A stretch of DNA of 64,000 nt from Euglena gracilis (lineage: Eukaryota): contig CP154954.1 of the NCBI GenBank assembly GCA_039621445.1, positions 24,936,954 through 25,000,953 on the forward strand. Reading direction: 5' to 3'. The first letter of the stretch is position 1; the number at the start of each line of letters is the position of its first letter. Positions 8,269 through 53,461 of this stretch are shown here, one piece after another. A program made the position numbers and the translations under genes. The notes under the pieces were generated by a model that had not been told where the DNA came from, made no database searches, and saw only the letters and a list, made by a program, of their open reading frames with translations.

Positions 8269-8571
8269 TCTCCTCACCCACACCTGCAGGGAGATGCCCT
8301 GCCCGTGTCCGCCGTGCTGTGGCACCTGCCAATTCGTACAGATGTAGAAAGAAAGGTGAAGACAATGAAGTGCAGACACTGGTGGACAGTGGCAGCGAAC
8401 ACACGGTGAGCACTACACCTACAGTACTGCTTTTCTCGTTTTTTTCTTATTGAACTGCATCGTACAGATAGCTTGGGTGGTTGAGCATTCTTCCCAGAAT
8501 TGGGAGGTTGTGGGTTCAAATCCCACTCTGTGCGTGTTTTCCCCGTTCAGATATTTTTGTTATGGTTTTGC
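8269..8571 (+). repeat. 303-bp direct repeat, copy B (tRNA-like at 8462-8533)
   Basis: See copy A. Confidence 0.9.
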
Positions 8572-20044: not shown

Positions 20045-20546
20045 GGTGGTGCGGATGGTTTCGCAACCCAACCCACAACCCAACCCACAACCCCCCCCCA
20101 CAAATGCCGGTCCCACCACCACTGCTCGACATCTCTGTAGACACGGGTTCGAATCCCGGTCGTTGGGGGCGACTTCCTGTTTTCTCTTAGGCGGCAAAAA
20201 TAATTTTCATAAAAGTACATGGACGAAAATGATATCGCCCCCCGTGGCATAGCGGTTCTGTGGTTAGCGTGTGACCGGTAGGTCGCGGGTTCGAATCCCG
20301 CCGGGGGGGGGGGGCAACTTCGTGTTTTTCTTGATTTGACGCGAGGAGGAGAGGGAAGCGGTGAATGCTTTTCGAAAGGAAGGAATTTTTTTCTTGGTCC
20401 GGCCGGCTGGCAAGACAGGCATTGGTCCGGCTTGACGGACGGCTGGCGAAAAAATGCTTCGTCCGGACGGACGGCTGGGCGTCCAGCATTGGTCCGGCTG
20501 AAGAGGTCCGGACGGCTCGTCCGGACGGACGGCCAGCCCGCACCCC
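20045..20546 (+). mobile_element. TIR element with two tandem tRNA-like modules, TSD ttg
   Basis: Removal restores LATALEGTEKL in CRE2. B-boxes GGTTCGAATCC at ~20146 and ~20288; GGAC repeats near the right end; related to 23695-25107. Confidence 0.7.
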
Positions 20547-22723: not shown

Positions 22724-23194
22724 CAGGGGGGGGGGAAATGCGCTCGCCCGGCCTCGGAAAAAATGTGCAAAAATGCGCAAAAATGCGCAAAAAATGCGCA
22801 TTTTTGGAAAAAATGCGCAAAAATGTGCAAAAATGTGCAAAATCCGAGAAAAAATGTGCAAAAATCACGAAAGTGCAAAAATTACCCAAAAACATGCAAA
22901 AATGGCACCAAATTTGAAGAAATTATGTGGAATAGTGAGGAAAATGTGTGTTTCAAAAAAAGTCAAAAATTTCAAATTTTTGCAAAAAAATGCAAAAATG
23001 GTCAAAAAATGCGAAAATTTTGGAAAATCACGAAAAAATGTGCCAAAAAGCAAAAAAATGTGCTGAAAAAAAACGAAAAAATGCGCAAAAAATGCGAAAA
23101 AATGCGCAAAAATGCGCATTTTTGGAAAATTTGAAAAATTGCGCAAAAATGCGCAAAAATGCGAAAAAATGCGAAATGCATTCCCCCCCCCCTG
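22724..23194. mobile_element. CAG(G)n...(C)nTG MITE with AAAAATGCGC repeats
   Basis: Flanks share caaagtg; reverse-orientation copy at 43322-43774. Confidence 0.8.
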
Positions 23195-25439: not shown

Positions 25440-26460
25440 CAGCGCGGCTTTTCGGAAGCACCAAAGAGCGTGCAGGGTTTCCCACCCTAGCTTTGACACA
25501 AATTCGGCCGAGGAGGGGATATGCACCAAGGTGCCCGGAGTGTCTTGGGAAATTTCTTCCCAAGATGGTTGCAATGGTGGCAGGGTTGCGAGAAGGGAGT
25601 GACTCTGTGGCCCAAAACCATAGTGGGCCGGCCTGTTTTTTTTGACGTTGTTTTTTTGTTTTTTTAAATTCTAACAATGCTTTTTTAAAAAAAAGAAAAA
25701 AAAGTGCCCAGTGGGTTTTGCATGGAAAATTTTTTGACTGCACATTTTCAATGATTTTTGGCAACTTCTGGGTAATTTCTGCCAAAAACTTCCTTCCACA
25801 AAAATGAAAAATGTCATAAAATTCCATTTTTGTTGCATTTTTGGATGTTTTTGACCATTTTTGGCAGTTTTTGAACTTAGCAGGATTCAAAGTATGGTTT
25901 GGGAGTTTCATAACGAGTTTTTTCAATGAAAGTTTCCTTTTGTTTTTTTTGATGTTTTTTTTACTGTTTTTTTAAAAAAAACACGTTGTCTTTTTTAAAA
26001 AAAAAAAACAAAAAAAATGCCCACTATGCCCAAAACCATGAATTTTGGCAATCGTTGAGCGTACCCGGGACTCTAGTCCGTCAATGACCATGATTTGTTC
26101 AGCTGCAGATGCCCCGGGGTCCCCGTTCAAATGGGGAAAGGGCATGATGGCCTGGAGCAGGCGAGAAAAGCGGCGCCGAGAGCACTGGGAACCAAGATCC
26201 GCAGAGTGGTTGTTCCATTTGAGGCGAGCAAGAGCTTTGCGAGGCTGAGACCATTTGGACGTCCTCCTGCTGGGGGCAGGATTCTGTGGGGCCTGGGTTG
26301 CTTTCCATGTCGGCACAACTGGCAAAGCTTTTGCCCCTTCCAAAGCGGCGGGGGGTGGTGCCGTAAACAAGCAGCAGGGGGGTTGTGCCATATTGTGTAT
26401 TCTTATGGTCCTTCAAAGTGGCATTCGGCTGGTCAGATTGCTGTCTGCTATGGCCTTCCA
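25440..26460 (-). pseudogene. Degenerate 5' part of another CRE-like element with 2A-like motif (26288-26341)
   Basis: GRGKSFASCADMESNPGP; downstream RVRSTIAKIH..PKTLRAPW..GGK resembles CRE2 TVSIIP..ETLHALW..GGR. Confidence 0.55.
25619..26028. mobile_element. Intact CATAGTGGGC MITE
   Basis: Exact 8-bp TSD cccaaaac; 10-bp TIR. Confidence 0.9.
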
Positions 26461-27049
26461 CTGAGGATTTAGGAGAGAGGGGGGTTGCGTCCAACAGGAT
26501 GGGGCCAATTGGGGCCAGATTTTCTGGAAATGTCTGGGGGGCTGGGCCCAGCAGGCTGGGGTAAAATGGGGCCGGACGTTTTGGCCAAAAGTTTTTGAAA
26601 TATGAGGGGGGATGGGTCCAAAAGGCTGGGGCAAAATGGGGCCAGCAGTTTTGGAAATGTCTGGGCGGCTGGGGGGGTAGCTACATCCTGGGGGGGGGGG
26701 GTAGTGGGGGTCGACCATGGTCCACCCACGGTCGCCCTCGGTCGCCCTCGGTCGTGGGGGTCGACCGAGGCCAGGCCGTATTCGGTCGTGGGGGTCGACC
26801 GAGGGCGACCATGGTCGACCCCCACCCCATGACAGGAACCCCCCCCCTTTTCAGGGGCGACCATGGTCGACCCCCACCCCACGACGGGAAACCCCACCCC
26901 CTTTTGAAGGGCGACCATGGTCGACCCCCACCCCACGACGGGAAACCCCCCCCTTTTGAAGGGCGACCATGGTCGACCCCCACCCCACGACGGGAAACCC
27001 CCCTTTTTGAAGGGAGACCATTCGACCCCCACCCCAAGACATGCCCCCC

Positions 27050-29648
27050 AAAACGGGTGGGCAACAAAAGGGATATGCCCCCCAAATGAGTTGGGCAACA
27101 AAAGGGATTTGCCCCCCAAAACGGGTGGGTAACACAAGGGATTTTGTTATTTTGGGGCGCTCGAACAGTTGGGCCACAAAAGGGATTTGCCCCCCAAAAC
27201 GGGTGGGTAACACAAGGGATTTTGTTATTTTGGCGCCCTGGAACAGTTGGGCAGCAAAAGGGATTTGCCCCCCAAACCGGGTGGGTAACACAAGGGATTT
27301 TGTTATTTTGGGGCCCTCGAACAGTTGGGCAGCAAAAGGGATTTGCCCCCCAAAACGGGTGGGTAACACAAGGGATTTTGTTATTTTGGGGCCCTGGAAC
27401 AGTTGGGCAACAGAAGGGATTTGCCCCCCAAAACGGGTGGGTAACACAAGGGATTTTGTTATTTTGGGGCCCTGGAACAGTTGGGCAACAGAAGGGATTT
27501 GCCCCCCAAAACGGGTGGGTAACACAAGGGATTTTGTTATTTTGGGGCTCTCGAACAGTTGGGCAACAAAAGGGATTTGCCCCCCAAATCAGTTGGGCAA
27601 CAAAAGGGATTTGCCCCCCCAAACGGGTGGGTAACACAAGGGATTTTGTCATTTTGGGGCCCTGGAACAGTTGGGCAACAAAAGGGATTTGCCCCCCAAA
27701 TCAGTTGGGCAACAAAAGGGATTTGCCCCCCAAAACGGGTGGGTAACACAAGGGATTTTGTTATTTTGGGGCCCTCGAACAGTTGGGCAACAAAAGGGAT
27801 TTGCCCCCCAAATCAGTTGGGCAACAAAAGGGATTTGCCCCCCCAAACGGGTGGGTAACACAAGGGATTTTGTTATTTTGGGGCCCTCGGACAGTTGGGC
27901 AGCAAAAGGGATTTGCCCCACAAAACGGGTGGGTAACACAAGGGATTTTGTTATTTTGGCGCCCTGGAACAGTTGGGCAACAAAAGGGATTTGCCCCCCA
28001 AATCAGTTGGGCAACAAAAGGGATTTGCCCCCCAAAACGGGTGGGTAACACAAGGGATTTTGTTATTTTGGGGCCCTCGAACAGTTGGGCAACAAAAGGG
28101 ATTTGCCCCCCAAATCAGTTGGGCAACAAAAGGGATTTGCCCCCCAAAACGGGTGGGTAACACAAGGGATTTTGTTATTTTGGGGCCCTGGAACAGTTGG
28201 GCAGCAAAAGGGATTTGCCCCCCAAAACGGGTGGGTAACACAAGGGATTTTGTTATTTTGGGGCCCTGGAACAGTTGGGCAACAAAGGGGATTTGCCCCC
28301 CAAAACGGGTGGGTAACAAAAGGGATTTGCCCCCCAAAACGGGTGGGTAACACAAGGTATTTTGTTATTTTGGGGCCCTCGAACAGTTGGGCAACAAAAG
28401 GGATTTGCCCCCCAAATCAGTTGGGCAACAAAAGGGATCTGCCCCCCAAAACGGGTGGGTAACACAAGGGATTTTGTTATTTTGGGGCCCTCGAACAGTT
28501 GGGCAGCAAAAGGGATTTGCCCCCCAAAACGGGTGGGTAACACAAGGGATTTTGTTATTTTGGGGCCCTCGAACAGTTGGGCAGCAAAAGGGATTTGCCC
28601 CCCAAAACGGGTGGGTAACACAAGGGATTTTGTTATTTTGGGGCCCTGGAACAGTTGGGCAACAAAGGGGATTTGCCCCCCAAAACGGGTGGGTAACACA
28701 AGGGATTTTGTTATTTTGGGGCCCTGGAACAGTTGGGCAACAAAAGGGATTTGCCCCCCAAATCAGTTGGGCAACAAAAGGGATTTGCCCCCCAAAACGG
28801 GTGGGTAACACAAGGGATTTTGTTATTTTGGGGCCCTCGAACAGTTGGGCAACAAAAGGGATTTGCCCCCCAAATCAGTTGGGCAACAAAAGGGATTTGC
28901 CCCCCAAAACGGGTGGGTAACACAAGGGATTTTGTTATTTTGGGGCCCTGGAACAGTTGGGCAGCAAAGGGGATTTGCCCCCCAAAACGGGTGGGTAACA
29001 CAAGGGATTTTGTTATTTTGGGGCCCTCGAACAGTTGGGTAGCAAAAGGTATTTGCCCCCCAAAACGGGTGGGTAACACAAGGGATTTTGTTATTTTGGG
29101 GCCCTCGAACAGTTGGGCAACAAAAGGGATTTGCCCCCCAAATCAGTTGGGCAACAAAAGGGATTTGCCCCCCAAAACGGGTGGGTAACACAAGGGATTT
29201 TGTTATTTTGGGGCCCTCGAACAGTTGGGCAGCAAAAGGGATTTGCCCCCCAAAACGGGTGGGTAACACAAGGGATTTTGTTATTTTGGGGCCCTGGAAC
29301 AGTTGGGCAACAAAAGGGATTTGCCCCCCAAATCAGTTGGGCAACAAAAGGGATTTGCCCCCCAAAACGGGTGGGTAACACAAGGGATTTTGTTATTTTG
29401 GGGCCCTCGAACAGTTGGGCAGCAAAAGGGATTTGCCCCCCAAAACGGGTGGGTAACACAAGGGATTTTGTTATTTTGGGGCCCTCGAACAGTTGGGCAA
29501 CAAAAGGGATTTGCCCCCCAAATCAGTTGGGCAACAAAAGGGATTTGCCCCCCAAAACGGGTGGGTAACACAAGGGATTTTGTTATTTTGGGGCCCTCGA
29601 ACAGTTGGGCAGCAAAAGGGATTTGCCCCCCAAAACGGGTGGGTAACT
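27050..29648. repeat. Homogeneous satellite: 78-bp units with optional 34-bp subunit (112-bp variant)
   Basis: aacagttgggcaacaaaagggatttgccccccaaaacgggtgggtaacacaagggattttgttattttggggccctcg, with or without atcagttgggcaacaaaagggatttgccccccaa. Confidence 0.95.
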
Positions 29649-29847
29649 CAAGGGTCGGGGTCGACCATGGTCGCCCCCCGATCAGGGGGGGGGGGTTTCC
29701 CGTCGTGGGGTGGGGGTCGACCATGGTCGCCCTTCAAAAGGGGGCAAGACTGGGCAAATTTCACGATTTTTTATTTTTTCAGAAAATTTCAAAATTTTCA
29801 ATATTTTCAATATTTTCATTGAAAAAATGGGAGAATCCTAATAGGAA

Positions 29848-31835
29848 ATGCCCAAGCGGCCTATTCATACTTATGGGAACGATTTCGATGTTCTCACAAG
29901 GGACAAGCAATTGAAGGCGCTGACTGTAAGATGCAAGCACTGCCCCTGGGAAAGTGTCTTCAATATTACAAGAATGAAGGAGCACTTGGCATCAAAACAC
30001 GCAGAGGATGGTCCCAAGACAAAAAAACAATGCACGTTGTTTGCATACGCCGACCGATCATTTGGCCCCTCCCAGCAGGAGCGAACAACCAGCCTTCTGG
30101 CGATGCTGCAAGTGCACTATGGGCTGTCATTCTCTGCCGTGACCAGTATGGAAATGCAGAATCTTCTGAAGTATTTGCGGCCAGAGGTTCACGTGCCGTC
30201 CCGAAGGACATTGCAAAGACGAGTGGACGGCCTGTACCACAGCCTGAAGGACAAAGTGTATTCCTTTCTACAACAAGTGGAGAGTGTGTCTTTGATGATC
30301 GATGGGTGGGAGGACCACAACAAGTGTGAGTGCATCGCCGTCACTGCCAAGCCACTGAATCCATCCCTGCATCCTGTGCTGATCCGCTTCCATCGTATGA
30401 CCACCCGTGCGACAACAGAACAGTTGCATGAATGTTTGGAGGTTTGCCATTTGTAATCGGCCCATCCAATTTGTCATCTTTGGTCAGGGCTGTGTACGAG
30501 ATCTTCTGTCTGCGGGTTGCAAAGTGGTGGCTGCATGTGCTGACAACGCCCGCAACATCCAAGGAGCTGTGAACACACTCAACAACAGCCACAGTTGTAT
30601 TCCACTCAACACTGCATGAAGCCCTGAATTAGACTGACAGAGCATGTGACCGAGTTCATTGTGTGGCTCAAAGGAGATGATGCCACGTTGGGGGCTGCGA
30701 TGCAGCGTTACATCGACTTACGCGGACATCTGGAAGAGGTGCTTGCAGACCTGCCGAGCAGTCTGCGAAAACATGGTCAGCACAGGCAACCACAGGTCAC
30801 CTTGGGCTTGGGCAGGGTTGGGTGCAATGCTCGTCCAGAAAAGGTTCCCTGGGGAAGTTTGTCTTTGTAGTATGCTAGTCCATGGTGCGTCCTGGAAATT
30901 GCATTGCCTGGTGTGGTTATGAGGTGTCTTTGTAGTACGTTTCTGTCTGTGGTGTGCATGGCCCCATCCTTCATCGAGGAACGCGACACGTTCTTCTTTC
31001 GGGACTGGAGCTGCCTGGCGTACATCATGGACCCGAACTACAGAGGTGCCCAGTTGGGTCCTCATCCAGGCACTTCCACATTGTCATCCCCATTGTCCTG
31101 AATTTGCACTTAAAATTTTTTTTGATTTCAGGCAGGGAAGCGGTTTCTGAAGCTGTGCCGTAATTCTTACTCTTTTTGTTTTGCATTCTTTTTGCCTTGC
31201 ATGACCTCTGCTGATCTGCTGTTGGGGGAACCTGAGCCTGACGGTTGAGGGACACATTGGCCTTCTTCCATGCGACGGCCTGGAAGACCGTCATGGGCGA
31301 CGCCGAAGCGCCCACTGCTGACGACATGTGCGACTATTTGAAGCTGGATGGAGTTTACTCTGTACCTCCTGGAATGCAGACCAGGGGCTTTCAGTTTACA
31401 GTTGACCCCCTAGCCTCTGCCGTAAAATTTGCAGCCCCCCCCCCCAGCCTCAGCCGTAAAGTTAGCAGCCCCCCCCCCCCCCCAGCCTCAGCCGTAAAGT
31501 TAGCAGCCCCCCCCCCAGCCTCAGCCGTAAAGTTAGCAGCCCCCCCCCCGCCCCAGCCGTAAAGTTAGCAGCCCCCCCCCCCCAGCCTCAGCCGTAAAGT
31601 TAGCAGCCCCCCCCCCCAGCCTCAGCCGTAAAGTTAGCAGCCCCCCCCCATCCTCGGCCATAAACCCCCTGCTGCAGACTGAGGGTTTGTCGGGGTACAA
31701 GTGGTGGGGCCTCTACAAGGACACGAACCTCAGTGCATTTGGCGCACTCCTGTGTGGTATACCGGCATCAGCAGCAGCAGTTGAAAGAGTCTGGTCTGTG
31801 GCAGGCCATCAGGTGGGTGATCGTGAATCGTTGGC
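29848..31835 (+). pseudogene. hAT transposase (BED finger, DDE, dimerisation domain), intron-containing, probably internally deleted
   Basis: RCKHC..MKEHLASKH; MIDGWED; GT-AG intron 30442-30487 joins CLE|GCV..ADNARNI; LAYIMDPNYRG; WW..IPASAAAVERVWS. A stop at ~30617 occurs where the CxxH motif is expected. Confidence 0.85.
31382..31671. mobile_element. CAGGGG...CCCCTG MITE inside transposase coding sequence
   Basis: TSD atgcagac / ctgcagac (7/8); internal ccagcctcagccgtaaagttagcag tandem repeats; removal gives PGMQTEGLSGYKWW. Confidence 0.8.
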
Positions 31836-34491
31836 AGGCCAGTCAAGGTGGCTCCTATGCCTTTTTTGGGGGGGTATTAACCCCTTCTTTTACGGTAAGG
31901 TTTGCTTTTGGATTGCCTGGCAAAAGCGTTGGACATTCTGGTGCAACTGGTTTATATTCACGCCAACTCATGGTTTTTTTCATTTGCGAGCGGTAACACC
32001 CCCTTCATTTACGGTAATGTTTGCCTTTGACGTGCCTGGCAACAACGTTGGAGAACCTGGTGCAAGAGGTTTTTATTCGCTTTAACTCCAGAGCTCTCCC
32101 CCCTGCTTTCCGTTTGTCGTTCTGAAGGTGTTTGTAAACACCTTCCAGTGGGATTTCCACTTTCAATGACAGTCGCCCAAAGACATGGTTTCGCATTTCC
32201 TTTTCTGCTTCCCCAAAAAAAGGAGGAAAAAAAAACATGTAGAACCACTGGAATGGAAAATGCAGAACCCATGTGGCCGCCCCCCCTCAAATAAAATACA
32301 CAAGTCCCAAGCCCTTCTTCAAACCTTAAAGGAAAAAGAAAAACCCTCCTGTGACCGAGAGAAAACACAAATCTTCGTTCCGTGCAATAGGGCCGACGAA
32401 GGAAATTCGTCTTCCATACTGAGGACGAATGAAATTTTTGAAAAAATGCGTGAAATTTTCAACGGCCGGCCATAAATTTCACGATGGAAAATTTTCACGA
32501 GCGAATTGAATGCCCAGTCTTGAAAGGGGGGGTTTCCCGTCGTGGGGTGGGGGTCGACCATGGTCGCCCTTCAAAAGGGGGGGGTTTCCCGTCGTGGGGT
32601 GGGGGTCGACCATGGTCGCCCTTCAAAAGGGGGAGGTTTCCCGTCGTGGGGTGGGGGTCGACCATGGTCGCCCCCCTTCCGGGGGGGGTTTCCCGTCGTG
32701 GGGTGGGGGTCGACCATGGTCGCCCCCCTACTGGGGGGGTTTCCCGTCATGGGGTGGGGGTCGACCATGGTCACCCTCGGTCGACCCCCAGGGTCGCCTC
32801 TGTCGACCCTCCCCACTACCCCCCCCCCCCCGACCGAGAGCGACCGAGGCGACCGTGGGTCGACCATGGTCGACCCCCACTACCCCCCCCCCCAGTCCAG
32901 ATCCGGGAGCCGGGCGGCTGGGTCCAGCAGGCTGGGGTAAAATGGGGCCGGACGTTTTGGCCAGAAGATTTTGAAATATGAGGGGGGGATGGGTCCAGAA
33001 GGTTGGGGCAAAATGGGGCCAGAAGTTTTGGAAATGTCTGGGGGGCTTGGTCCAGCAGGCTGGGGCACAATGGGGTCAGAAGTTTTTGAAATATGAGGGG
33101 GGGATGGGTCCATCAAGCCGGGGAAAAATGGGGCCAGCAGTTTTTGGAAATGTCTGGGCCGCTGGGTCCAGCAGGCTGGGTCAAAATGGGCCAGAAGTTT
33201 TGGAAATGTCTGGGGCCGGGTCCAGCAGGCTGAGGCAAAATGGGGCCACACATTTTGGAAATGTCTGGGGGGCTGGGTCCAGCAGTTTGAGGCACCCCCA
33301 TCAGATTGGAATGAATGGGGACCAGTTTTGGGGACTTGCAATCAAAATTGCAACAAGACTTCCAGACTGAGTGTAAAGCAAAAACAAAAGAAAAAGCAAC
33401 AGAGAGAGAGAGAGAAAGTTGCACTTAATAATGGTGCTTTGTGGGCCTTTTCAGGCCACAGGTTGTCCATGGACTGCAGGGCCTTTTCAGGCCACCGCAT
33501 GGATTGCAGGGCCTTTTCAGGCCACTGTGTAGACCAAATGTCAAAGTGACCAAGTAGCACGTGCTGCTGAAAAGTTGATAAACCAAGGAATACTTGTGGC
33601 GTGGAGATTGCTCAGTGCAAATTTGAGTCTTGGGTCGCAACTGCCAGTGAAAAAAACGAAAGAAATCAGCCAGACCAGGCCTACGTCAGAGTCAATTAGG
33701 AATTTCGGGAGGTTATTTGTCTGGTTCGCTAAGACCAAGTGTGAGGCTATTCTTAATTTTAAAAGTTTTCCCACGAGGCCCAAGAGGGACGAGGGCACGT
33801 TCTGGGTGAAGCTGTGATATCCCTTCACCAAAAATCGTTTCATTCTGCTTCGAACAAGAGCATCAATGTGTCTGGTGCGGAATTATTTTTTTGCATCTGC
33901 GTCGTCATTGGAACCTTTTTGGCCCATTTTTTCTTCTTCGAGAAGTTGAAACATTCATGGAAGACAATTGTCTGTTGACACCCCATTTGGGGGGGGTGGC
34001 GTTCAATGTGTGTTGTCCTCCATGGGGCCAAAATTTGGTCACTTTTTCAATAAAAAATATGAAAAGAGTCACTTTTTTTTGGCAGCTTTTTGGGTCGGGA
34101 TGGAGTTTTTTTAAAGTTTTTTTAAAGTTGGAAAAATCAGCACAATTGTTTTTGGGCCATTTTGGGCGTCAAAGAATTTTTCCCCTCAAACGGCGTGCCT
34201 GGTCCCCACACCCATGTTGATCCAAAATTATTGGCACAAAGTTTCAGAATTTTTGAGTAATGTGAAAACCCCAGCCCCCCCCCCCAGGGGATGGGGTTCA
34301 GGAGGGGATGGGGTTCAGGGGGTGCTGACTCAAAACGTGTCGGAAATTTTCAGTTCCAGTCGGTTTCACCTGACTCAACCTGACCCAAAAACCTTCAAGT
34401 TTTTTTTGGCCAAGAACCCCCCCCCCCCGCTTCCATTCAAGGATGTTGTTTCCTTCACTGAATTTGGACACCATTCGCCGGAAAGGATGGC

Positions 34492-34508
34492 TGTCTTTTT
34501 TTTTCTAG
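34492..34508 (+). promoter_or_regulatory. Polypyrimidine tract + AG; candidate spliced-leader trans-splice acceptor
   Basis: gtc(t)9ctag ends 5 nt upstream of ATG 34514. Confidence 0.55.
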
Positions 34509-34513
34509 GTGAG

Positions 34514-34883
34514 ATGGCTTTCACCGCAAAGCGTGAGCATCACCCAGCATTGCCCCTATACCTTTTGACTGATGCTCTTCTCTTCCTTGCCATCCTCCTT
34601 GGATTCATCGCACTGTTTGTGCCTTGGGCTCAAAAAGACGTCGCTGTTGGTTATCGTGCTTTTTCGTACCCATTCAAGACGTGCTATGTGCCAACAACCA
34701 GTCCAGTGCATCAAGAAACTTGCATGGACAATGACTTTATTGCTGGCCCAAAGGGAGCTCCTGTGACAGCTGGTGACGCCACTTGCAAGACATTCATCAT
34801 CACGGCTATCGCCCTGGGATTTTGCGGAGTGTTTGGTGGATTTTTAGTTTTCTTGTTTCTGATCTGGGTGATCGTCAGGCTTT
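34514..34883 (+). CDS. Amastin/claudin-like four-TM protein, exon 1
   Basis: MAFTAKREHH..LLFLAILLGFIALFVPW (TM1), Cys-containing loop, TM2 FIITAIALGFCGVFGGFLVFLFLIWVIVRL. Confidence 0.8.
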
Positions 34884-36063
34884 GGGCAGGCTATTCCCTG
34901 CAAGGGACAGGAGCAACTCATTCGGACTGTTCCGTTGGTTCATACTCGGAAGTGCATCAACTCCGTTAGTCAATCGGGTATTTGTTCGCTGCTCGACCCC
35001 CACCCAAAATTTTTCGGTACTTATCTGTTATCGCACGACACCTTATTTTTTGGTTTCGCACGACACCTTGTTTTTAGTTCTATGGGGTTATTTAAGGAGT
35101 AGGGTTAGGTGCGCACAGGCCATGTAGCGCAACATGGCCTGTGCGCACCTAACCCTACTCCTTAAATAACCCAATATTAACCCAAAAAAAAAAGGGCGTC
35201 GTGCGATAACCAAAATAAGGTGTCGTGCGATAACAGATAAGTACCAATTTTTCAAGTCGTCAGGTTATTTGAAGGAGTAGGGTTAGGGCGACATGGCCAT
35301 GCTCGACGCCCCTTCGACGCCTCACCCGGGTCCCCCATGTTTTTAGCTCCAGTTGGGCGGCTCTTTGGGTTCGCTGGAGACACCAATCTAACAACGTTGA
35401 GCGGGAAATGTTCTGCTGTTTGCATAAGAATTGTAACCCCAACCCTGCTCCTTCAAAGAACGGCAGAAAATCTTTTTGGCCACGGGAAAACACCATCAGC
35501 AAACTTTGTTGCCTTTGGTTGGACTGGCGGGGATGCCCCCCCCCCGCACCATATATACTGTAATAGCCCTTCTTTATGTTTGGCAAGGGTCTGGATGTTT
35601 CTGAATTGGAAAACTACAGAAGTCGTTTCAATCGACCACATGGTCGGCCTGACCACCATTTGGGGGGTGTTACCCCCACGTCCCCCCCCCCGCGTCCCAC
35701 CCCCGTCCTTTTGGTCGACCAAAGGAAAATTTGGGTGACGCCAAAGAAAACGTGCGGGGGTGGTTGGGCCACGGTTCCCCCCCCGGGTCCCATAACTGAT
35801 GCCCCCCTTCTGAAGCAGCCAAAACGGGCAGGCACATTGAGCAATTTTGAAAATTTTAAAAGTTCCTGAGAAAGCCAATCCCCTGAACGTCCAAGTGCAA
35901 TGAAATTTGGAAGGTGAAATAGGGCTCCAATTCCACGTCCATACAAAGTTTGGCCAGTTTTGGACATGGGGGGTCATTATGGGGGGTATAAATTGACAGG
36001 GCGCCGAGCAATGCACGCGTTGCCTTCTTGCTGCTTCTTTCCTTTTGTGAGTTGCCTGGTGCT
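34884..36063 (+). other. Nonconventional intron 1 (1180 nt)
   Basis: ggg-CAG...CTG-gtgct|g; CAGGC/GCCTG and GCAACTCA/TGAGTTGC pairing; in-frame join RLW-YRPIK. Confidence 0.75.
35016..35245. mobile_element. Almost fully palindromic MITE with GGTAC termini (Merlin-like)
   Basis: Exact 8-bp TSD aatttttc; arms of ~113 nt with a few-nt loop. Confidence 0.8.
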
Positions 36064-36284
36064 GGTATCGCCCCATCAAATCTGCCATTGGTGCACAGAT
36101 CTGCATCATTCTTGCTTGCATCTGCTGTGCATTGTGTTGGATACTTTTCATCTGCTATGCCGAACGCACGTGCCGACCCTACACAATCTTCCCTGTGAAG
36201 GGTTATTCTTATGGGTTCATCCTCTTTATATTTGCAACAGCGCTGTCCCTCGCCTCGGTTGTGACAGGTTTCATGGCCTTGATG
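36064..36284 (+). CDS. Amastin/claudin-like protein, exon 2
   Basis: YRPIKSAIGAQICIILACICCALCWILFICY (TM3)..GYSYGFILFIFATALSLASVVTGFMALM (TM4). Confidence 0.8.
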
Positions 36285-37074
36285 GATCAGGGGCTGGAGC
36301 ACCGCCTTAAGATTGCAAGCTAACCCCCCCCCCAAATAACCTGGCGGGGTGCCAGGTTATTGGAACCAACTTTTGTCCCTGCCCCCCCCCCCCGAGCATC
36401 AAAAAGGAATTTTGCCTGGAACCATATTTTTTGCCCTTCCCCCCGCCAAGTTATTCGGCCCCTGCCACGAGCAAGGACCCCGCCAGGTTATTTGGGGATA
36501 ATTTTTTGCCAGTGTTTCTGAATTTTTATTTGTTGGCCCAAGCATGCAGTCACTAAAAAATCATTGGCAGGTGGCCGATGATCCCCCTCATAGGAACAAG
36601 AACATGGGGGGACAGGCTGCTTCCTTTTTTTTAATTTACCGCGGAGTACCCAAGGTGGTTCCAGGCAAGACATCCAAAGGCCTTTTTAAAAAACTCAGAA
36701 GCCCCTCCCCCCCGAGAAGGATGGGTGGGCAGGCTTGGGAACTGCCCCTCGGGGGGGGGGACCCAGGGTGCCAGACCCTTTTGCCGGAGTGTCATGGCTA
36801 AACTTATGTATGTTTGCCCCAAGCCCAAATATTTTTGCCACCCGTCCCTGGTATTTTTGCCACCCCATCTAAATATTTTCGCCCCCCGTGTACACCTTTC
36901 TGCCCCCTGTTTCATTTTTTTTGCCCCAAAGAGCCACAATGTCCAGTCAAAATGGTTCTGATTCCAGAGCCAGAGGCAGGTTGAAAGGGCATTACAATTT
37001 GCTGAATGTTGAACACCATTTCTGCTGCATATCAGTAGCGATTTTTTTTACTCAAAGCAGCCTGATTTCTATAC

Positions 37075-37178
37075 AAAAACCGACCGACACAAACAGATTC
37101 AGCAGGGACACTGGGCGCGAGCGAGCGAAGCGAGCCGCCCAGCGCCCCTGCTGAATCTGTTAGTGTCGGTCGATTTTT
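37075..37178. repeat. ~100-nt hairpin with GCGAGCGAGCGAAGCGAGC apex
   Basis: aaaaaccgaccgacacaaacagattcagcagggacactgggcg / cgcccagcgcccctgctgaatctgttagtgtcggtcgattttt. Confidence 0.8.
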
Positions 37179-37180
37179 CT

Positions 37181-38014
37181 AAAACCTATTTTGTCTGGGC
37201 CCGACGCCTGTCTTGAAATTCATTCAACCGAACCGCCTGGACGGAAATATGGCCAAAAAAGTGGTTTTTGGCCCATTGACGGGCGCCTGAATGGAAACCG
37301 TTAGACATAAACGGGCGCCTGAATGGAAATCGACCGACATGAACAGGCGCCTGATTGGAAATCGACTGACATAAACGGATTCCGATGTCATGGAAATCGA
37401 CCAACCTTTTGTGTCCTTTTTCTGAATGCTTTTTTGTTCCATTTTGGGACATTGTCAATTTCAGCCTGAAGTCCGTTAATCGACCTTTTTTCTCATTTTT
37501 CTGAATACTTTTTTCTTCCATTTTGACAGAATAGAATAATAACAATAGAAATTCCAACACAGGCGTGGAGCCCAGAAAACAGCCCTATTTTTTCGACATT
37601 TTTGGTCCTGTGGGGTTCTGGAGGCGTTATGAACCATACAAAAAAACAAATTTTGCGACTGATTGCCGGAAATTGGTGATATATTTTTTGGTGGTCGCTA
37701 GCGACTGGTCCCTAACGACCATTAGGGACCATGGTCGCTAGCGACTAGTCGCTGGCGACCATGGCTACTGAAATCCAAAATGTCCAAAAGTCACTAAAAA
37801 TTCCCAATCAGCAACAGATTTCAATGGAATGGAAATCGACCGACATAAACTGGCGCCTGAATGGAAATCGACCGACATAAACGGGCGCCTGAATGGAAAT
37901 TGACCGACATGAACAGGCGCCTGAATGGAAATCGTCTGACATAAACAATTTCAGGCTGAACCGTTAATGTCAGCAGAATTTCAAGACAGGCGTCGGGCCC
38001 AGAAAATAGGTTTT
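37181..38014. mobile_element. TIR element (~38-bp TIR) with 36-bp subterminal repeats
   Basis: aaaacctattttgtctgggcccgacgcctgtcttgaaattc / gaatttcaagacaggcgtcgggcccagaaaataggtttt; ggcgcctgaatggaaatcgaccgacataaac units. Confidence 0.75.
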
Positions 38015-38143
38015 AACTGGTTTTCGCTTTTGGGTGGGAAAAAAACCGAGATGCTTGCAGTGCTGTGAAAACTTCTCATTGCACTCCTGTGGCCTTATTT
38101 TGTTTCAGATTTCCAGATCAGATTTCATTACATTTGTTTCAAC

Positions 38144-38705
38144 GGCTCATTGCGGGAAATTGGCCGTGGAACTTTTGGTGGTCGCTAGCGACCGGTCACT
38201 AGCCATGGTCGCTAGCGACCGTTGGTCACGGTCAACCTCCCATTGGTGGTCGGAGCGACCGGTCGCTAGCGACCACCAAAATTTCGACCCCCCCCTCCTC
38301 CAGAAAATTCGGGCCAGGAGGGGGGTGGGACCCCCCCCCACCTAAACAGTGGCGCGGTCTGGGTGACTGGGCCGGGCCGAAAATTTTTGACCCCCAAAAC
38401 GACCAAAAGTGCCTTTTTGGGCACTTTTTGGGGAAAAAGGTGCCAAAAATGCAAAAATTTTCGGCGCGAAGCACAAAGGAAAAAATTGACCCTTTCAGGG
38501 GGGGGGGGTCCGGACCACCCCCCCACCTGTCCTTATATCGAACCCTGGCCCCCCCCATTGGGATGTAATACAAAACCCCCCCTGTTGTACTGCAAAACGA
38601 TGCTACCAGGGCCAAGCGCGCATGTGATGCCACGCGCACCATAAACAAAACCGTCCCAAGGCGTCTTCGGCGCCCTTGGTCGTCTAGCGGGGGGGGGGGG
38701 GGGGG

Positions 38706-38740
<35 letters not shown>

Positions 38741-39270
38741 CCTCCAATAACAAAATCCCCTCTGGGGGGGGTAACCGACCCAGGGCAGGTGCGCATGTAC
38801 CCTCACCCCCCCCTCCGGGGGGCAAATTTTTGGGCTTTGGCGCCAAACGAAAGGGGCCACTTTGAGGGGGGGTAAAGCAAATTTGACAAAAAAATTTGGC
38901 CACTCTGAGGGGGCGGGGGTGAGGGTAATGCCACCCCCCCCCCCTGCTGCCGCCCCCCCGTACCCCCCCCGCCTTCCAATGACAAAGTAATGTAAGCATT
39001 GTGTGACATCATGCAAGATCCTAAAAGCAGAAAAAAGGAACTTTTCATATAAAATTTCATGGCTTTCTCTGGGGGAAATTTTTCCTTCACGGGGGGGGGG
39101 GGGCTTAAAAATCTTCTGAGAGGGGGGGGGTCGAATTTTTGGTGGTCGCCAGCGACCGGTCGCTCCGACCACCAACGGTCGCTAGTGACCAGTCGCCAGA
39201 ATTCGGTCGCTAGCGACCATGGTCGCTAGCGACCACCAAAAGTTCCATGGCCAATTTCCCGCTCGGAGCC
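38144..39270. mobile_element. GGCTC...GAGCC element, 9-bp TSD (Mutator-like)
   Basis: TSD tgtttcaac (38135-38143 / 39271-39279); long TIRs containing GGTCGCTAGCGACC palindromes. Confidence 0.8.
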
Positions 39271-40187
39271 TGTTTCAACAACCCCACCTTTTATTGAAGC
39301 GGAAATGCCATTACTACAAAAGCCGATGGACCTTAAAATTTGTCCCATTCCAACCTTTCCCAAATGAGTTGCATTCAAGCCCTTTTGGGCTGTTTTCTCA
39401 AATGCACTTGGCGGTCAATGGACAATAAAACTGCACAACCAACATGTGGTGTTGGGAAAAGTCAAAGGAGTTCTTGGACTTTTCCAAATGCCAAATTCTG
39501 GTTGTGGATGATTTTGAGTTCCTCTCTGTCTGAGGAGAGAGTTCTCATGGGTGATTCCGACTTCTTTTGAAGTCATTGGTTTTGAGGCAGTGGGAAAGGG
39601 GGGGCTTCCCCTTCTTATGAATCCGCTTATGACTTAGTTCACATATTTGTGCATTTTTTGTGCGAATAAGTAGTTTGTGTGCTTTACAGAGTGCATGTGT
39701 CTGTATTATTGTTCCTGCACGTGCTGACAATTCGAAACTTGCTGCAGAGAAATTCTTACAAAATTGAAATTTATAATTGCCAAAGGGCCCAAATATTTTG
39801 GGTTCTAGTGGTGCGTTGGTGCATGTGTTGTACATTTAAGGTTCCACATCCTTTCCCATGCACGTTAGATGCCTTTGCAGCACCAGTGCCTAAAACGTGG
39901 ACACATTTCCAAGTGCCAAGGGTCCTGGGAGTCCCGGGAGTTGTAATTGCCAGATGTGACGAAAAAAAAAACGAGGATTAGGGGCAAAGTTAACCAGGTC
40001 AAGGTACGAAAATTTGTAGCAGGGCCGGGGGGGTGAAAGGTTCCTGGCCTGGGGGCAGAAATTAGTAAGGTTAGCCATAAATGAGGAGGGGGGCTGGTCC
40101 CGGACCCCCTCTCTTGGAAAAAACCTGACGCCAGAATTTTTTTTTGCTGGGGTCGGTGAGGAATTGTGTGGTCCAGAGTCTGTTGCC

Positions 40188-40352
40188 AAGCTGAAGAATT
40201 ATCAGCTGCTCTCCCTGGATGAACAAGAGAAGGATATTGATATGGACGTCCAGGCACCCCAAATGGACATTGTTTACCCAGAGTATTCTCCTCAGGGCGC
40301 TGTTCCAACACCTGTTGTCCAGTACCCCACCTACACCCCTGTTATTGACTAG
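40188..40352 (+). CDS. Amastin/claudin-like protein, exon 3 (acidic, Pro/Tyr-rich tail)
   Basis: KLKNYQLLSLDEQEKDIDMDVQAPQMDIVYPEYSPQGAVPTPVVQYPTYTPVID*; total CDS 756 nt. Confidence 0.72.
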   Translation, partial: KLKNYQLLSLDEQEKDIDMDVQAPQMDIVYPEYSPQGAVPTPVVQYPTYTPVID

Positions 40353-41025
40353 TATGTGTGCTTTTTCATTGTGTTGAAGCGGGTGTTTCTCTGGGGTGGC
40401 TGAAAGATCAGAAGGCAAATTCCTGGGTCCCCTCAAAAATAACCCTGGGGGGGGGGTCCCGGGCCAGTGTGGGTTTTGGCGCGAAGCGCTGAAAAATCTT
40501 TGGGAAATGGCCTCAGACGGCTGATTTGGGGGGGACCCCGGGGGGGGGGGGGTCCCACGCCGGGCTGGGGTGGGTTTGACCCTCCCCCGGTTCTTAAAGC
40601 CCGGGTCTTGAAGCCTGCAGGGGGGGGGGACTGCAGGTCCCCCCGCCCCCTCCCCATTTCTCTTTCGCCATTCCTGTGTGTCAATATCTCAACGCGATGA
40701 AGTCCTGATTTTTTGGCAGACTATTTTTCAATATTCAATGCAACAGTCAATTTTACACAACGGTTTACAATACGAATGAATCCAATCCTACTGCAGCTCA
40801 ATTGGCAAGGCGTCCGTTTTCTGAAACAAATGTTTTGGAACTGTTTGTTTTCATTGGTCTGATTTTTTTTGGCAGTTGTGTTCAACTGTTCAATCAGAAA
40901 ATGTTTCACCTTAATTTGCAACCCATTTGTAATGTGCTTGATGATTCTTCCTAATTGTTTTCAATGGTGCGTTGTGTTTTGGGGAGGGGACAAAATTTGG
41001 TCAAATAAGTGGGCCCAGCAAATGT

Positions 41026-41190
41026 GGAATCCTAAGTTTTGGTTACCTTAGCCTCCGGGGAGCCTCCGCGGAAGCCTCTGTGGAGGCTGGTTACCTTGGA
41101 GCCTCCGCGGAGGCTGGTAACCTTGGAGCGTCCGCGGAGGCTCCTCGGAGGTAACCACTGTTGTACAACCACTGTTGTACACAGGCCATG
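41026..41190. repeat. GGTTACC / AGCCTCCGCGGAGGCT minisatellite element
   Basis: Palindromic ~27-bp units; relatives at 42587-42843 and split around the DIRS element. Confidence 0.75.
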
Positions 41191-41499
41191 TCTGAAAATA
41201 GGAAAAATATTTTTACAGGTTGACGCCAATCTCCCTCCACACCCCTTCCTCCTGTTCCCCACACTACTGCCCAGAGGAAGAGGAATTTTATTTTAATTTT
41301 TTCTCCCCCATCTCCACAAAAAAAACATTTTCCCCCATTTTTGCTGTGAATCCCCCAAAAATTTAAATTTTTTTACACTCCAACACTGCCCACATCGCCA
41401 CAAAGAACGAAGCTTTTCGCCCTCTCACACGCACCCATCCCCTCCATTTTCCACAAAAAGCGATTTCCATTGATGTGGTACAGACCGTTCACCCATTTT

Positions 41500-41725
41500 G
41501 CCGTTTACGCCATGTCCGCCAAACTTGTTGAAAACCATTCATCCATTTGATACAAAAACACCATGTCCGCCTGATTTTGCTTTTACCGTTTACCGATTTG
41601 CTATTGACGCCATGTCCGCCAAACTTGTTGAAAACCATTATCCATTTGCTACAAAAACGCCATGTCCGCCTGATTTTGCTTTTACTGTTTACCCGTTTGC
41701 TATTGACGTCATGTCCGCCAAACTT
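41500..41725. repeat. ~120-bp tandem duplication built from cgccatgtccgcc subunits
   Basis: Seen directly. Confidence 0.75.
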
Positions 41726-42211
41726 TGTCCACACAAAAGGATGTTGTCATTGGGGAGCGGGGGAGGGGGGGAGAGGGGAAGGGGGTGGGGGAGGGGGGCG
41801 GGGGGGGGTGGGGGCGGCGGCCCCCTCCCCCCTGGGCACAGCCAAATGGACACCACTTTGGGTTTCACCTGACCTTTTTTGCAACATCACATCCATGCTG
41901 ACGTGCAGTTTGCTACCATCACCCTTTCCAAGTGACTGTTGGTTCACCTGGTTGAAAACATTTCAGTGCAATCCAGGATTAAAAGTTGTGGCAAATCCCA
42001 GTGGGATCACAATCTCAGGTACAATTTTGGCCTCTGGATAATTTAGGTATTATTCTGGCTGAATAAATTCATTTTCGGTTTTGTTTAAGCTCAATGTTGC
42101 CTCCCAAAGTCCGTGAATTTCTTTAGTCTGGGAATTAGTCCGTGAAGTAGTCCGTGAATGATTTTCCCCTCTGTGCAAATGGGCAGCAGATGATCTGCCA
42201 CTGAGTGCCGT

Positions 42212-42487
42212 CAGGGATTTTTTTAAGTTTGGACCCCCGGGGGGGGGAGGGGGGGTAGGGTGGGTGGGTCCGCCGGACCCCCGCCCCCCCCCCCGGGGGG
42301 GGGGGTCCCCCCGGAGGGGGGTGGGATATACTTTTCGGCGCCGCAGGCGCCGAAAAAATTCTATTTTTAGCACTTTTCGCGATTTTTTGGCCATTTTTTG
42401 TGGGTCCCCCGGGCCCCCCTCCCCCCCCAGGGGGGGGGGTGGGTGGGGGGGGACCCCCCCTCCCCCCCGGTCTTAAAAAAACCCCTG
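42212..42487. mobile_element. CAGGG...CCCTG MITE
   Basis: TSD agtgccgt / agtgcagt (7/8). Confidence 0.8.
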
Positions 42488-42586
42488 AGTGCAGTCACCG
42501 TGTTTGACATTGAAGAATGTTTCTCTTTATAATACAAAAAAACAAACAAACAAACAAAAAAATTCCTGTTCAGTTGTATGTTCCCA

Positions 42587-42843
42587 ACATGCTCCTGCAA
42601 AATTGGTTACCTTGGCCTCCGAGGAGCCTCCTCGGAGCCTCTGCGGAGGCTGGTTACCTTGGAGCCTCCGCGGAGGCTGGTTACCTTGGAGCCTCCGCGG
42701 AGGCTGGTCACCTTAGCCTCCGCAGAGGCTGGTTACCTTAGCCTCCGAGGAGCCTCCACAGAGGCTGGTTACCTTGAGCCTCCGCGGAGGCTCCGCGGTG
42801 CCTCCCCGGAGCCTCTCGGAGGCAACCAAAAAGTTAGGATTCC
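42587..42843. repeat. GGTTACC / AGCCTCCGCGGAGGCT minisatellite element, second copy
   Basis: Same units; terminal motifs appear swapped relative to 41026-41190. Confidence 0.75.
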
Positions 42844-42855
42844 ACTTTTGCGGCA

Positions 42856-42918
42856 GACCGTTCAAACCCAGGTTTTCCGCGTGACGGACAGAAGCTCTAT
42901 CCACTGAGCCACGGTCAC
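42856..42918 (-). pseudogene. tRNA-Asp(GTC)-like pseudogene
   Basis: GTGACCG TG GCTC AGTGGATA GAGC T TCTGT CC-GTC-AC GCGGA ... CTGGGTTTGAA; 3' side of T-stem missing. Confidence 0.6.
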
Positions 42919-43321
42919 CTGCTTCTTCCACGTTTCTACTGAAATTTCTCTAACATAATTCTAAACGCCGTGACAAATTGGTCACCTGAGGCTCCGGGAA
43001 TTTCCCCAGAGGCTGGTGACCCTTCCTGGAGCATCCCGGAGCCTCTATCCAGGTAACCTCCTTCGGCAGGATTCCATTTTTGCGGCAGGCCCGGGTTATC
43101 CAGCCATTCCTCTCATTGTGATTAAACCCCCCAAATAACACCCCCCCCCCGGTGTGTTATTTGGGCACCCGAACTGGGGGTCCAAGGAGGGGTGTGTTAT
43201 TTGGGGGGGGTATTTTTACAGGGAAACCCAAAGGAAAACAGGGGGGGGGGTGTTATTTGTGCGCTCGAAATCGGCCCTCGAGGGGGGGGGTGTTATTTGG
43301 GGGGGTTTAGTCCCCCCAAGG

Positions 43322-43774
43322 CAGGGGGGGGGAAATGCGTTTCGCATTTTTTCGCATTTTTGCGCATTTTTTGTGCATTTTTTCAAATTTTCCAAAAATG
43401 CGCATTTTTGCGCATTTTTTCGCATTTTTTGCGCATTTTTTCGTTTTTTTCAGCGCATTTTTTTGCTTTTTGGCACATTTTTTTGTGATTTTCCAAAATT
43501 TTCGCATTTTTTGGCCATTTTTGCAATTTTTTTGCAAAAATTTGAAATTTTCGACTTTTTTTGAAATTTACATTTTCCTCATTATTCTACATAATTTCTT
43601 CAAATTTGGTGCCATTTTTGCATGTTTTTGGGTAATTTTTGCATTTTCGTGATTTTTGCGCATTTTTTCTCGGATTTTGCACATTTTTGCGCATTTTTTC
43701 CAAAAATGCGCATTTTTTGCGCATTTTTGCGCATTTTTTCCGAGGCCGGGCGAGCGCATTTCCCCCCCCCCCTG
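43322..43774. mobile_element. CAG(G)n MITE, reverse copy of 22724-23194
   Basis: Flanks share ccaagg. Confidence 0.8.
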
Positions 43775-44625
43775 CCAAGGGAAATTATCGCCATTGAACG
43801 AACTCAGCATTGATCAAAGCCTGGAAACTACATTTAAATATCAAACCTGTCATTCAATGGCTTCATTTTATTCTCAGATGGAGAAGATGGGAGCATTCAC
43901 TGGTTGTTTTATGGGCAACAGCGACGATTCGAACCGGATGCTTCTGCGAAATTCACGTTGCATTGGACAGGCATTATGCCATTCTTTTTGCGAAGTGAGT
44001 TCCTGCTGTCCAAATCTGCAATGACGTGTCTCTCACAGACAACAAACAAACAAACACAACCAGCCACAAGAGATTTCTGTTTCATTTCTTTCTTCTGCTT
44101 CTTTTTTAAAAGTGGAATGTGCCACCCGACTTTCCCAGGTTTTGAGAAAAGGAGGGAGTCACGGCTTTGGATGAGGGGTTCGGACGATACCAGTGCGTCC
44201 GACCCTGGGTGATTGACTGGTGTTTTTTGTGGTCACTCTGCTGGTAGGTGGGGGTTGACCCCCACCTGGGTGATGGGTCAACCTCCTCCCCCACACAGCT
44301 TTCCCAACAGCCCTGTCCTGGGGGAAGGACAGAAAGGAAGGGGCGAAAGTGGTGAACCGGTGCCAAAGGCGCTGGGATTTTCTTTGGGACAGATTCATCT
44401 AACACCCATGACCCCCCCCACCGGGGGTGGGTGGGCTTTTGAGAGTGGGGGGGTTTCGGGTTTCTTTTTAGGTCAGAAGACCCGGGGGGGGGGGAGGGGT
44501 CCCTGGCCACTCACCACGCAGCAAACTGGGCCAGAAGCGAAGTTAGCGCCGGCCATAAACAGACAAGAAGCCTTAGTGCAACTAAGGGGGGGGGAGGGGT
44601 CCGGGTCCGGGCCAGAGGTCCAAGT

Positions 44626-45106
44626 CAGGGAATTTCTTAAGCCGGAGGGTACCCTACCCCCGGGGGGGGGGGTCCAGCCAGCCAGCAGCTCAAATCCAGC
44701 CAGCAGCCCAAATTCGGGCTGGGAGCCCCCCCCCCCGGGGTCGAGTGAAATAAAGTCGGGTCCAGCCCGGCCGGAGGCCGGGCCAGCCGGCCGCAGGCCG
44801 GCCAGCCAACTGGGCTGTCCAGCTCACTTATCCCTGCATTTTTCCCCCTCATCACAGCCCCTCCATCACAGCCCCCCAGCCTTGATCTATCTCCACCCAT
44901 CAAAATGTCGAAAATGGCCAAAATGTGTTAGAAAATTTTGTTTTTCGTCGACCCAGCCCAGCCCAGCCCGCTCCAGCCCGGGACCCCCCCCTCCCCCCCC
45001 CACCCCCCCGGGGGGGGGGCCAGCCAGCAGCTCAAATCCAGCCAGCAGCCTTTTTGCCAGCCGGAGGCTGGACCCCCCCCCCGGGGGGTCCTTAAGAAAT
45101 TCCCTG
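44626..45106. mobile_element. CAGGGAATTTCTTAAG MITE
   Basis: 16-bp perfect TIR; exact TSD gtccaagt. Confidence 0.9.
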
Positions 45107-45260
45107 GTCCAAGTATGGTTTTTGGCGCAAAGCGCCGAAAATTTTCTGGGGAAGTGCCCAAATGGAGGGGGGTCCTCCATGAGAAACCTGGGACCAGGGT
45201 TCGATATATGGTTCCCCCCCCCCCCCCCCTCCTGGACTGGAATGGGGTTCCCCCCACCTG

Positions 45261-53068: not shown

Positions 53069-53461
53069 CAGGGTTTGATATAAGGAGGGCGTACATGGTT
53101 TAGGTGAGGGGGTGTCCCCCCCACCACCCCCCCCCTCCTGGCCCGCAGGGGGGGTCCGGACGCCCCCCCCCCCCACCTGCCAGGGGGGTCCGGACCGACC
53201 CTGGGGGGGGGGGTTCCCGGGACCCCCCAAAAAGGGTCAATTTTTTCCTCCGGCGCTTTGCGCCGAATTTTTTTTTGCATTTTTTGCACATTTTTGCCCA
53301 AAAAGTGCCCAAAATGGCACTTTTGGTCGTTTTGGGGGGTCAAAAATTTTCGGCCCGGCGCTTTGCGCCGGGCTGAAATTCGGTCACCCAGACCGCGCCA
53401 CTGTTCAGGTGGGGGGGGTCCGGACCACCCCCCCCCCCACCTGTCCTTATATCGAACCCTG
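53069..53461. mobile_element. CAGGGTTTGATATAAGG MITE
   Basis: Exact TSD ctctgggg; related ends at ~38530-38547, ~52650-52666, ~57005-57020. Confidence 0.88.

Follow-up and report, generated by a model that had tools for sequence, protein, structure and literature searches.

Where the nonconventional introns of euglenids come from, and why they are cut at such odd distances from their paired ends, has been an open question for about thirty years. A stretch of 64,000 nucleotides (nt) of Euglena gracilis DNA (contig CP154954.1, positions 24,936,954 to 25,000,953), called the window here and numbered from its first letter, raises this question in a concrete form: can a transposon be an intron of this kind from the moment it inserts? 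The window appears to be dense in non-autonomous DNA transposons that make target-site duplications (TSDs) of 8 base pairs (bp), the hallmark of the hAT superfamily, and these lie beside a hAT transposon. The main class, with 9 to 10 putative copies, carries inverted ends of the form CAGG...CCTG. On RNA, an element of this class together with its TSD would read N3-CAG-stem...stem-CTG-N5, which is the cis-code that is sufficient for Euglena nonconventional splicing in knock-in experiments. A machinery that makes its cuts 3 nt ahead of the stem and 5 nt behind it would take the element with one copy of the TSD, since 3 and 5 add up to 8, and the original exon would thereby be restored. We consider it rather probable that the CAGG...CCTG hAT-type elements, with their 8-bp TSDs, are ready-made nonconventional introns whose excision restores the exon. 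We infer both that these elements would be spliced and that nonconventional introns at large would descend from them.

Elements with CAGG ends and 8-bp duplications

A sequence-only reading of this DNA had listed seven elements with CAG-type inverted ends and 8-bp TSDs. All seven were borne out: 31382-31671, which had served as the worked example, 42212-42487, 44626-45106, 45261-47178, 53069-53461, 54267-54551, and 62834-63135. A CAGG start is present in 7/7 and a CCTG end in 6/7; the right end of 62834-63135 is CATG (it reads GCATG), just as had been said. The two copies of the TSD agree at 8/8 positions in the elements starting at 44626, 45261, 53069, and 62834 and at 7/8 positions in those starting at 31382, 42212, and 54267. 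Further scans yielded three more elements, 45593-47033 (TSD 8/8), 51147-51573 (8/8), and 45195-47204 (7/8). In the resulting set of ten, the TSD is perfect in six and 7/8 in four, and every element starts with CAGG. The terminal inverted repeat (TIR), compared over the first 14 nt, matches at 13/14 positions or better in seven elements, at 10/14 in 31382 and 45195, and at 8/14 in 54267. These elements resemble hAT-type MITEs (miniature transposable elements with inverted repeats); they are real and, as transposons, ordinary.

The window was scanned for CAG...CTG pairs with a TSD of at least 7/8, and 100 dinucleotide shuffles of the window served as the control. At a TIR of at least 11/14, 7 pairs were observed against a shuffle mean of 0.03, and for this reason the element set was considered real. 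Lowering the TIR threshold to 10/14, 9/14, and 8/14 or better yielded 9, 11, and 17 pairs, with shuffle means of 0.30, 1.25, and 3.27, respectively. The element at 54267 is weak on its own, because its TIR of 8/14 falls where 3.27 matches arise by chance. The worked example, with a TIR of 10/14, is fairly safe. When the right-hand 8-mer was slid by 1 to 10 nt at a TIR of at least 11/14, 0 to 2 matches were obtained, compared with 7 in register. At the relaxed threshold, an offset of 5 gave 13 matches versus 11 in register; 8 of these 13 represent one chance match multiplied by a tandem array. Relaxed-scan matches at 44964-45535 and from 37560 or 37987 to 39272 were dropped as being near chance level.

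A second survey was independent of CAG and considered any exact 10-nt inverted pair in the window. Among the 689 pairs, flush exact direct repeats numbered 7 at a length of 8 and 0 at lengths of 7, 9, and 10; two more 8-bp cases were scored as 6. In 10 shuffles, which provided 3628 pairs, no flush repeat of length 8 or greater was found.

The simple MITE copies range from 276 to 481 bp, and none of the elements is assigned a strand. Three are of the CAGGG type: 42212-42487 (276 bp, TIR 13/14), the DNA word depth of which far exceeds that of single-copy contigs, although depth is not copy number; 44626-45106 (481 bp, TIR 14/14); and 53069-53461 (393 bp, TIR 13/14), the 3' end of which recurs at 38494-38547 with 91% identity. 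The CAGGC type is represented by 51147-51573 (427 bp, TIR 14/14), absent from the earlier list, and by the weak candidate 54267-54551 (285 bp). Three elements form a nest three deep, in which an inner CAGGC-type element, 45593-47033 (TIR 13/14), lies inside 45261-47178 (TIR 14/14), which itself lies inside 45195-47204. The middle element belongs to the family of 44626-45106, and the ends of these two are 90% alike in opposite orientation. The CAGG...CATG element, 62834-63135, is 302 bp long (TIR 13/14).

Fit to the nonconventional splicing code

The code reported for euglenid nonconventional introns is 5'-N3CDG-/-CH'GN5-6|R (PMC12501133, Nomura et al. 2025). According to this report, lengthening or shortening the 3-nt spacer before CAG by 1 bp was not tolerated, a spacer of 5 nt is preferred after CTG with one additional base still being spliced, and the downstream exon has to begin with a purine. 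Introns of 50 bp that were synthetic throughout and carried CAG/CTG, 12-bp pairing, and the purine were spliced from a foreign exon site (PMC12501133). The consensus given for E. gracilis, CCAGG at +3 to +7 and CCTG at -9 to -6 (PMC11170887), coincides with the ends of the MITEs.

The N3-CDG/CH'G-N5-6 signal is present in nine of the ten elements, in each of them as CAG...CTG, and 62834-63135 departs from the CDG/CH'G rule. The TIR had been proposed to supply the stem. This stands for six of the nine elements, in which at least 10/12 pairs form next to CAG/CTG in the plus sense, and less so for the worked example (8/12 pairs, termini unpaired in the minimum-energy fold) and for 54267 (5/12). 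A purine follows the cut in 6/9 elements in the plus sense and in 8/9 in the minus sense; the worked example has it in the plus sense only. The arithmetic of the sequence-only reading was correct: removal of 3 nt, the element, and 5 nt leaves exactly one copy of the TSD. That this would work at any site and in either orientation was overstated, because the code demands a purine after the cut.

One published case bears on the length of the duplication. A newly gained gapC intron of one E. agilis strain is described as having 8-nt direct repeats, the longest among the introns studied, and its authors read them as double-strand-break repair (PMC4770533). These repeats fit the TSD idea. C is also reported for base 3 of the downstream exon (PMC4770533), and Y|R is found at both junctions of nonconventional introns (PMC6221363). 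In a duplication model, intron position +3 and base 3 of the downstream exon, both C, would map to TSD position 8, and Y|R at both junctions would map to TSD positions 5|6. Among the elements of the window, TSD position 8 is a C in 5/10.

The worked example is a MITE-like element of 290 bp, with CAGGGG at its start and CCCCTG at its end. Its TSD copies, ATGCAGAC (31374-31381) and CTGCAGAC (31672-31679), differ in the first base alone, and its interior consists of seven 34-bp tandem units (array at 31406-31649). No second copy of the element was found in the 64-kb window. The predicted nonconventional intron, 31379-31676 on the plus strand, would comprise N3 (GAC), the element, and N5 (CTGCA), followed by G; cutting it out agrees with the published code and restores one TSD copy. 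The joined sequence had been claimed to lie in frame with a hAT dimerisation domain. An open frame of 104 amino acids (aa) does run across the joint, and the domain score was not raised (17.7 versus 18.8 bits). The worked example is a plausible case of an element acting as an intron.

This insert sits in a hAT transposon of 2778 bp (29745-32522, plus strand, TIR 12/14, TSD 8/8), which also carries a transposase gene. The transposon has CAAG...CTTG termini, with ends CAAGACTGGGCA and a perfect TSD AAAGGGGG, and is inserted into a 52-bp tandem array. Given these termini, the transposon and the CAGG MITEs are not cognate partners. Three-frame translation placed the coding pieces of the transposase at 29848-30453, ~30519-30612, 30628-30780, ~30955-31060, 31242-31378, and 31677-31851 on the plus strand. 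Their frames change from piece to piece, so this copy has introns, is decayed, or both. A direct Pfam search with the pieces returned sub-threshold matches only (zf-BED, E 0.033; Dimer_Tnp_hAT, E 0.006). The N-terminal 202 aa had 221 relatives at E <= 0.001, and among the long relatives of this piece Dimer_Tnp_hAT was found in 6/10 and zf-BED in 5/10. Judged by its relatives, the gene appears to encode a hAT transposase with a BED finger and a C-terminal dimerisation domain. A word-index protein search with the gene among longer proteins gave none at E <= 0.001, and a PDB sequence search gave chance-level rows only. A large inverted structure around the gene was considered as the element ends and was rejected, as it proved to be repeat modules. 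Upstream, 27089-29654 is occupied by tandem arrays with 78-, 112-, and 190-bp units, and the array of 52-bp units flanks the transposon on both sides (26802-27041 and 32526-32778) in inverted orientation.

RNA-proven introns of an expressed gene

Positions 29800-49799 were compared with three RNA runs and a DNA contig set from the same organism, with about 5% of each run being read. Fifteen joints were listed and there were 825 further ones; low-count joints at MITE borders would lie outside those listed. RNA joints, depth, and an open frame delineated a trans-spliced, expressed gene for a membrane protein of 251 aa (coding 34514 to 40351, plus strand). Its coding exons are 34514-34882, 36063-36284, and 40188-40351, and the exons of its 3' untranslated region (UTR) are 43878-43988, 49643-49681, and 49826 onward, all on the plus strand. 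The stop codon arises across the joint of exons 3 and 4, and therefore the last three introns, C, D, and E, belong to the 3' UTR. Reads begin at 34499, and all of them read T8CG over 34499-34508, as the spliced leader of E. gracilis does at its conserved 3' end (PMC4778363). The AG at 34507-34508 is the trans-splice acceptor, and the ATG is at 34514. The host belongs to the euglenids, and its spliced leader is of the Euglena type.

All five introns lie on the plus strand. Intron A (34884-36063) is nonconventional and reads GGG-CAGGC...GCCTG-GTGCT|G after a 1-nt slide. Its joint, 34882>36063, has three slidable places and was supported by 328, 268, and 81 reads in the three RNA runs and by 0 DNA contigs. 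Nonconventional intron B (36285-40187) reads GAT-CAGGGG...GTCTG-TTGCC|A, an exact fit to the code; its joint, 36284>40188, is not slidable, and the RNA reads across it numbered 539, 482, and 68 in the three runs, with no DNA contig containing it. The frame is open across both, yielding the 251-aa protein. Intron C is conventional, GT..AG, and its joint at 40351>43878 was found in RNA and in none of the DNA contigs. Intron D (43989-49642) has the N3/N5|A geometry with GAA...TTC replacing CAG...CTG, and its joint, 43988>49643, was found in 308, 316, and 86 reads and was likewise absent from the DNA contigs. Intron E is a short noncanonical intron of 144 nt (49682-49825), recognized by a loose RNA end at 49681 that was matched to 49826; its paired ends are CTG...CAG or ACT...AGT, with spacers of 4+5 or 3+4 nt. 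That the host performs nonconventional splicing, as the proposal presupposes, is confirmed by joints that occur in RNA from the window and are absent from the DNA contigs.

Apart from the worked example, the MITEs within 29800-49799 are located in introns C and D and none in an expressed exon. The element at 42212 lies within conventional intron C, and intron D holds four of the MITEs, including that at 44626. RNA depth in the hAT gene was 0 over the bins of 29800-31133 except for 0.22 in one run, and it was 0.2 to 1.5 in the bin with the worked-example insert.

Alternative explanations, related systems, and other features

Several observations weigh against the CAGG elements being ready-made introns. 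CAG-type ends are common among hAT elements generally, in many eukaryotes without such splicing, and the resemblance to the code could therefore be coincidence. Five elements of the window combine a perfect 8-bp TSD with ends other than CAG (22797-23163, 25619-26028, 29745-32522, 35016-35245, and 43353-43710), and no autonomous partner with CAGG-type ends was found in the window, where the sole hAT transposon has CAAG ends. The 8-mers of the RNA-proven introns that fit the geometry are identical at 4/8, 2/8, and 1/8 positions, with about 2/8 expected by chance. The termini of introns A and B occur in single-copy DNA contigs with a depth of 70 to 79, and those of A, B, and E showed no match to the MITE families of the window. 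With its spacers of 4+5 or 3+4 nt, intron E departs from the 3/5 rule. The stem of the worked example is imperfect and does not appear in the minimum-energy fold (z 0.96), and no spliced MITE was among the joints listed, from about 5% of each run and with a depth of about 0 in the worked-example gene. The RNA-proven introns with fitting geometry are old or unrelated and neither confirm nor refute the MITE idea.

The elements could, then, be ordinary hAT MITEs without any role in splicing, the introns arising otherwise, e.g., by double-strand-break repair, and the sum of 3+5 = 8 being accidental. The CAG ends of hAT elements in eukaryotes without such splicing agree with this, as do the RNA-proven introns of the window, which are single copy and have no TSD remnant. 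Break repair is also how the authors of PMC4770533 interpret the 8-nt repeats. We nonetheless regard coincidence as unlikely, given that synthetic introns with only these features were spliced (PMC12501133), which makes a transcribed MITE a predicted substrate. Moreover, the published CAGG/CCTG consensus equals the MITE ends, equal base preferences are reported at equivalent positions of both junctions, and the repeats of the newest known intron are exactly 8 nt long. It could also be that the machinery came first, so that exonic CAGG MITEs are spliced but are a minor, recent source, with most introns deriving from different elements or by different processes and with 3/5 offsets that hAT did not shape. 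Under such a scenario one can place the 38.8% of E. agilis nonconventional introns outside the code (PMC12501133), the other motifs or spacings used by introns D and E, and the related introns of diplonemids, which end in G- and C-rich inverted repeats (PMC12621601). It leaves unexplained, however, why the offsets sum to the length of the TSD and why both sides show the position-8 and Y|R preferences, and we find it quite unlikely. A narrower objection concerns the worked example alone, which might be no transposon at all but a local 34-bp tandem expansion in a decaying hAT pseudogene, with a flanking match by chance. Its interior is indeed a tandem array, its TIR is just 10/14 and its TSD 7/8, the window holds no second copy, and its fold has no terminal stem. 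On the other hand, 9 elements were found versus 0.30 expected per window at a TIR of at least 10/14, the CAGGGG start and CCCCTG end of the insert match those of other elements, and its precise removal leaves the frame open, all of which makes an expansion very improbable.

Carried further, the proposal that CAGG elements are ready-made introns leads to a wider model. The 3-nt/5-nt measure of the splicing system would have co-evolved with hAT elements, whose 8-bp TSD must go, and most nonconventional introns, which make up 71.8% of all E. agilis introns, would be decayed hAT MITEs. The excised RNA circle would be the element plus one TSD copy, and imprints of the hAT target-site preference would be seen in the C at position +3 of both intron and exon and in the Y|R of both junctions. 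We hold this wider model as possible but tentative, with doubt slightly outweighing belief. Should the proposal of ready-made introns hold, it would also be an instance of a host RNA-processing system fitted to the chemistry by which one transposon family integrates.

Whether the idea is new had been left undecided by the sequence-only reading. A MITE origin of nonconventional introns was put forward as a hypothesis by 2014 (PMC3935182) and restated in 2016, 2018, and 2025, and in a review from 2024 CAG/CTG is marked as TIR and the repeats at the junctions as TSD-like (PMC11282704); the link between hAT and 8 = 3+5 appears to be new. In the main texts of the open-access literature, no paper naming hAT or equating 3+5 with the TSD length was found, and an 8-nt limit may already be visible in the sliding-distance figure of PMC12501133. 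In 2014, it was stated that euglenids had yet to yield an identified transposon (PMC3935182). Families with CAGG...CCTG ends and 8-bp TSDs would name the responsible superfamily and explain the cuts at 3 nt and 5 nt, and the question can be reduced to a genome-wide test on the existing annotated introns of E. agilis and E. gracilis. In our assessment, the reading is a well-grounded, testable refinement of a known hypothesis, resting on published experiments.

Elements of the hAT superfamily of the Ac/Ds type have an 8-bp TSD and short TIRs, the end of Ac being CAGGGATGAAA. The elements of the window resemble hAT MITEs and Ac/Ds in their 8-bp TSDs, their short TIRs with a CAGG start, their small size and nesting, and the presence of a hAT transposase gene close by. 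They differ in that an autonomous partner sharing their ends was not found in the window and in that five 8-bp-TSD elements end otherwise. In maize, Ds reportedly acts as a de novo intron, an exonic hAT element being removed from RNA, in work said to be that of Giroux et al. in 1994. The same, a hAT element in an exon taken out of RNA, is proposed for the Euglena elements; the maize removal differs in being imprecise, spliceosomal, and dependent on cryptic sites, not an exact restoration set by TSD length. Introners in Micromonas and Aureococcus, reportedly described by Huff et al. in 2016, are said to be transposon-derived spliceosomal introns. Those of Amoebophrya are also reported as transposon-derived spliceosomal introns (PMC7789003). 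In introners, as in the proposal made here, a DNA transposon with TIRs and a duplication turns intron on insertion, and splicing takes the element with one repeat copy. Introners, however, use the spliceosome and have shorter duplications, whereas the remover proposed here is the euglenid system, probably non-spliceosomal, which reads the TIR stem. The nonconventional introns of euglenids are characterized by CAG at +4 to +6, CTG at -8 to -6, pairing between their ends, and a purine that follows the 3' cut (PMC12501133; Milanowski et al. 2014, 2016). Introns A and B belong with them by RNA evidence, and 9/10 MITEs carry these signals. The MITEs are set apart by probably being repeated, by having intact 8-bp TSDs, and by being known here from DNA, whereas the proven introns are single copy and without TSDs.

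The window contains several further features. Two of the four small non-CAG elements with 8-bp TSDs are one family in opposite orientations, and one sits in nonconventional intron A. At 58395-62307, on the plus strand, a 1033-aa open frame that contains a reverse-transcriptase domain (E 6e-09) and weakly matches a Dam-like methyltransferase is followed by a 279-aa frame; the region looks like a DIRS-type retrotransposon. A 96-nt stretch at 44495-44590 occurs in many reads of RNA run X24 with foreign sequence on both sides (87 and 84 loose ends) and has a very high DNA word depth; it may be an expressed repeat or a small RNA source. At 41792-41809 and 44992-45002, beside poly-C tracts, RNA depth exceeds 100 with mixed variant letters, and the reads at both places probably stem from many repeat copies. 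Three tRNA genes on the plus strand (7607-7679, 8462-8534, and 20238-20309) are the sole Rfam matches in the window.

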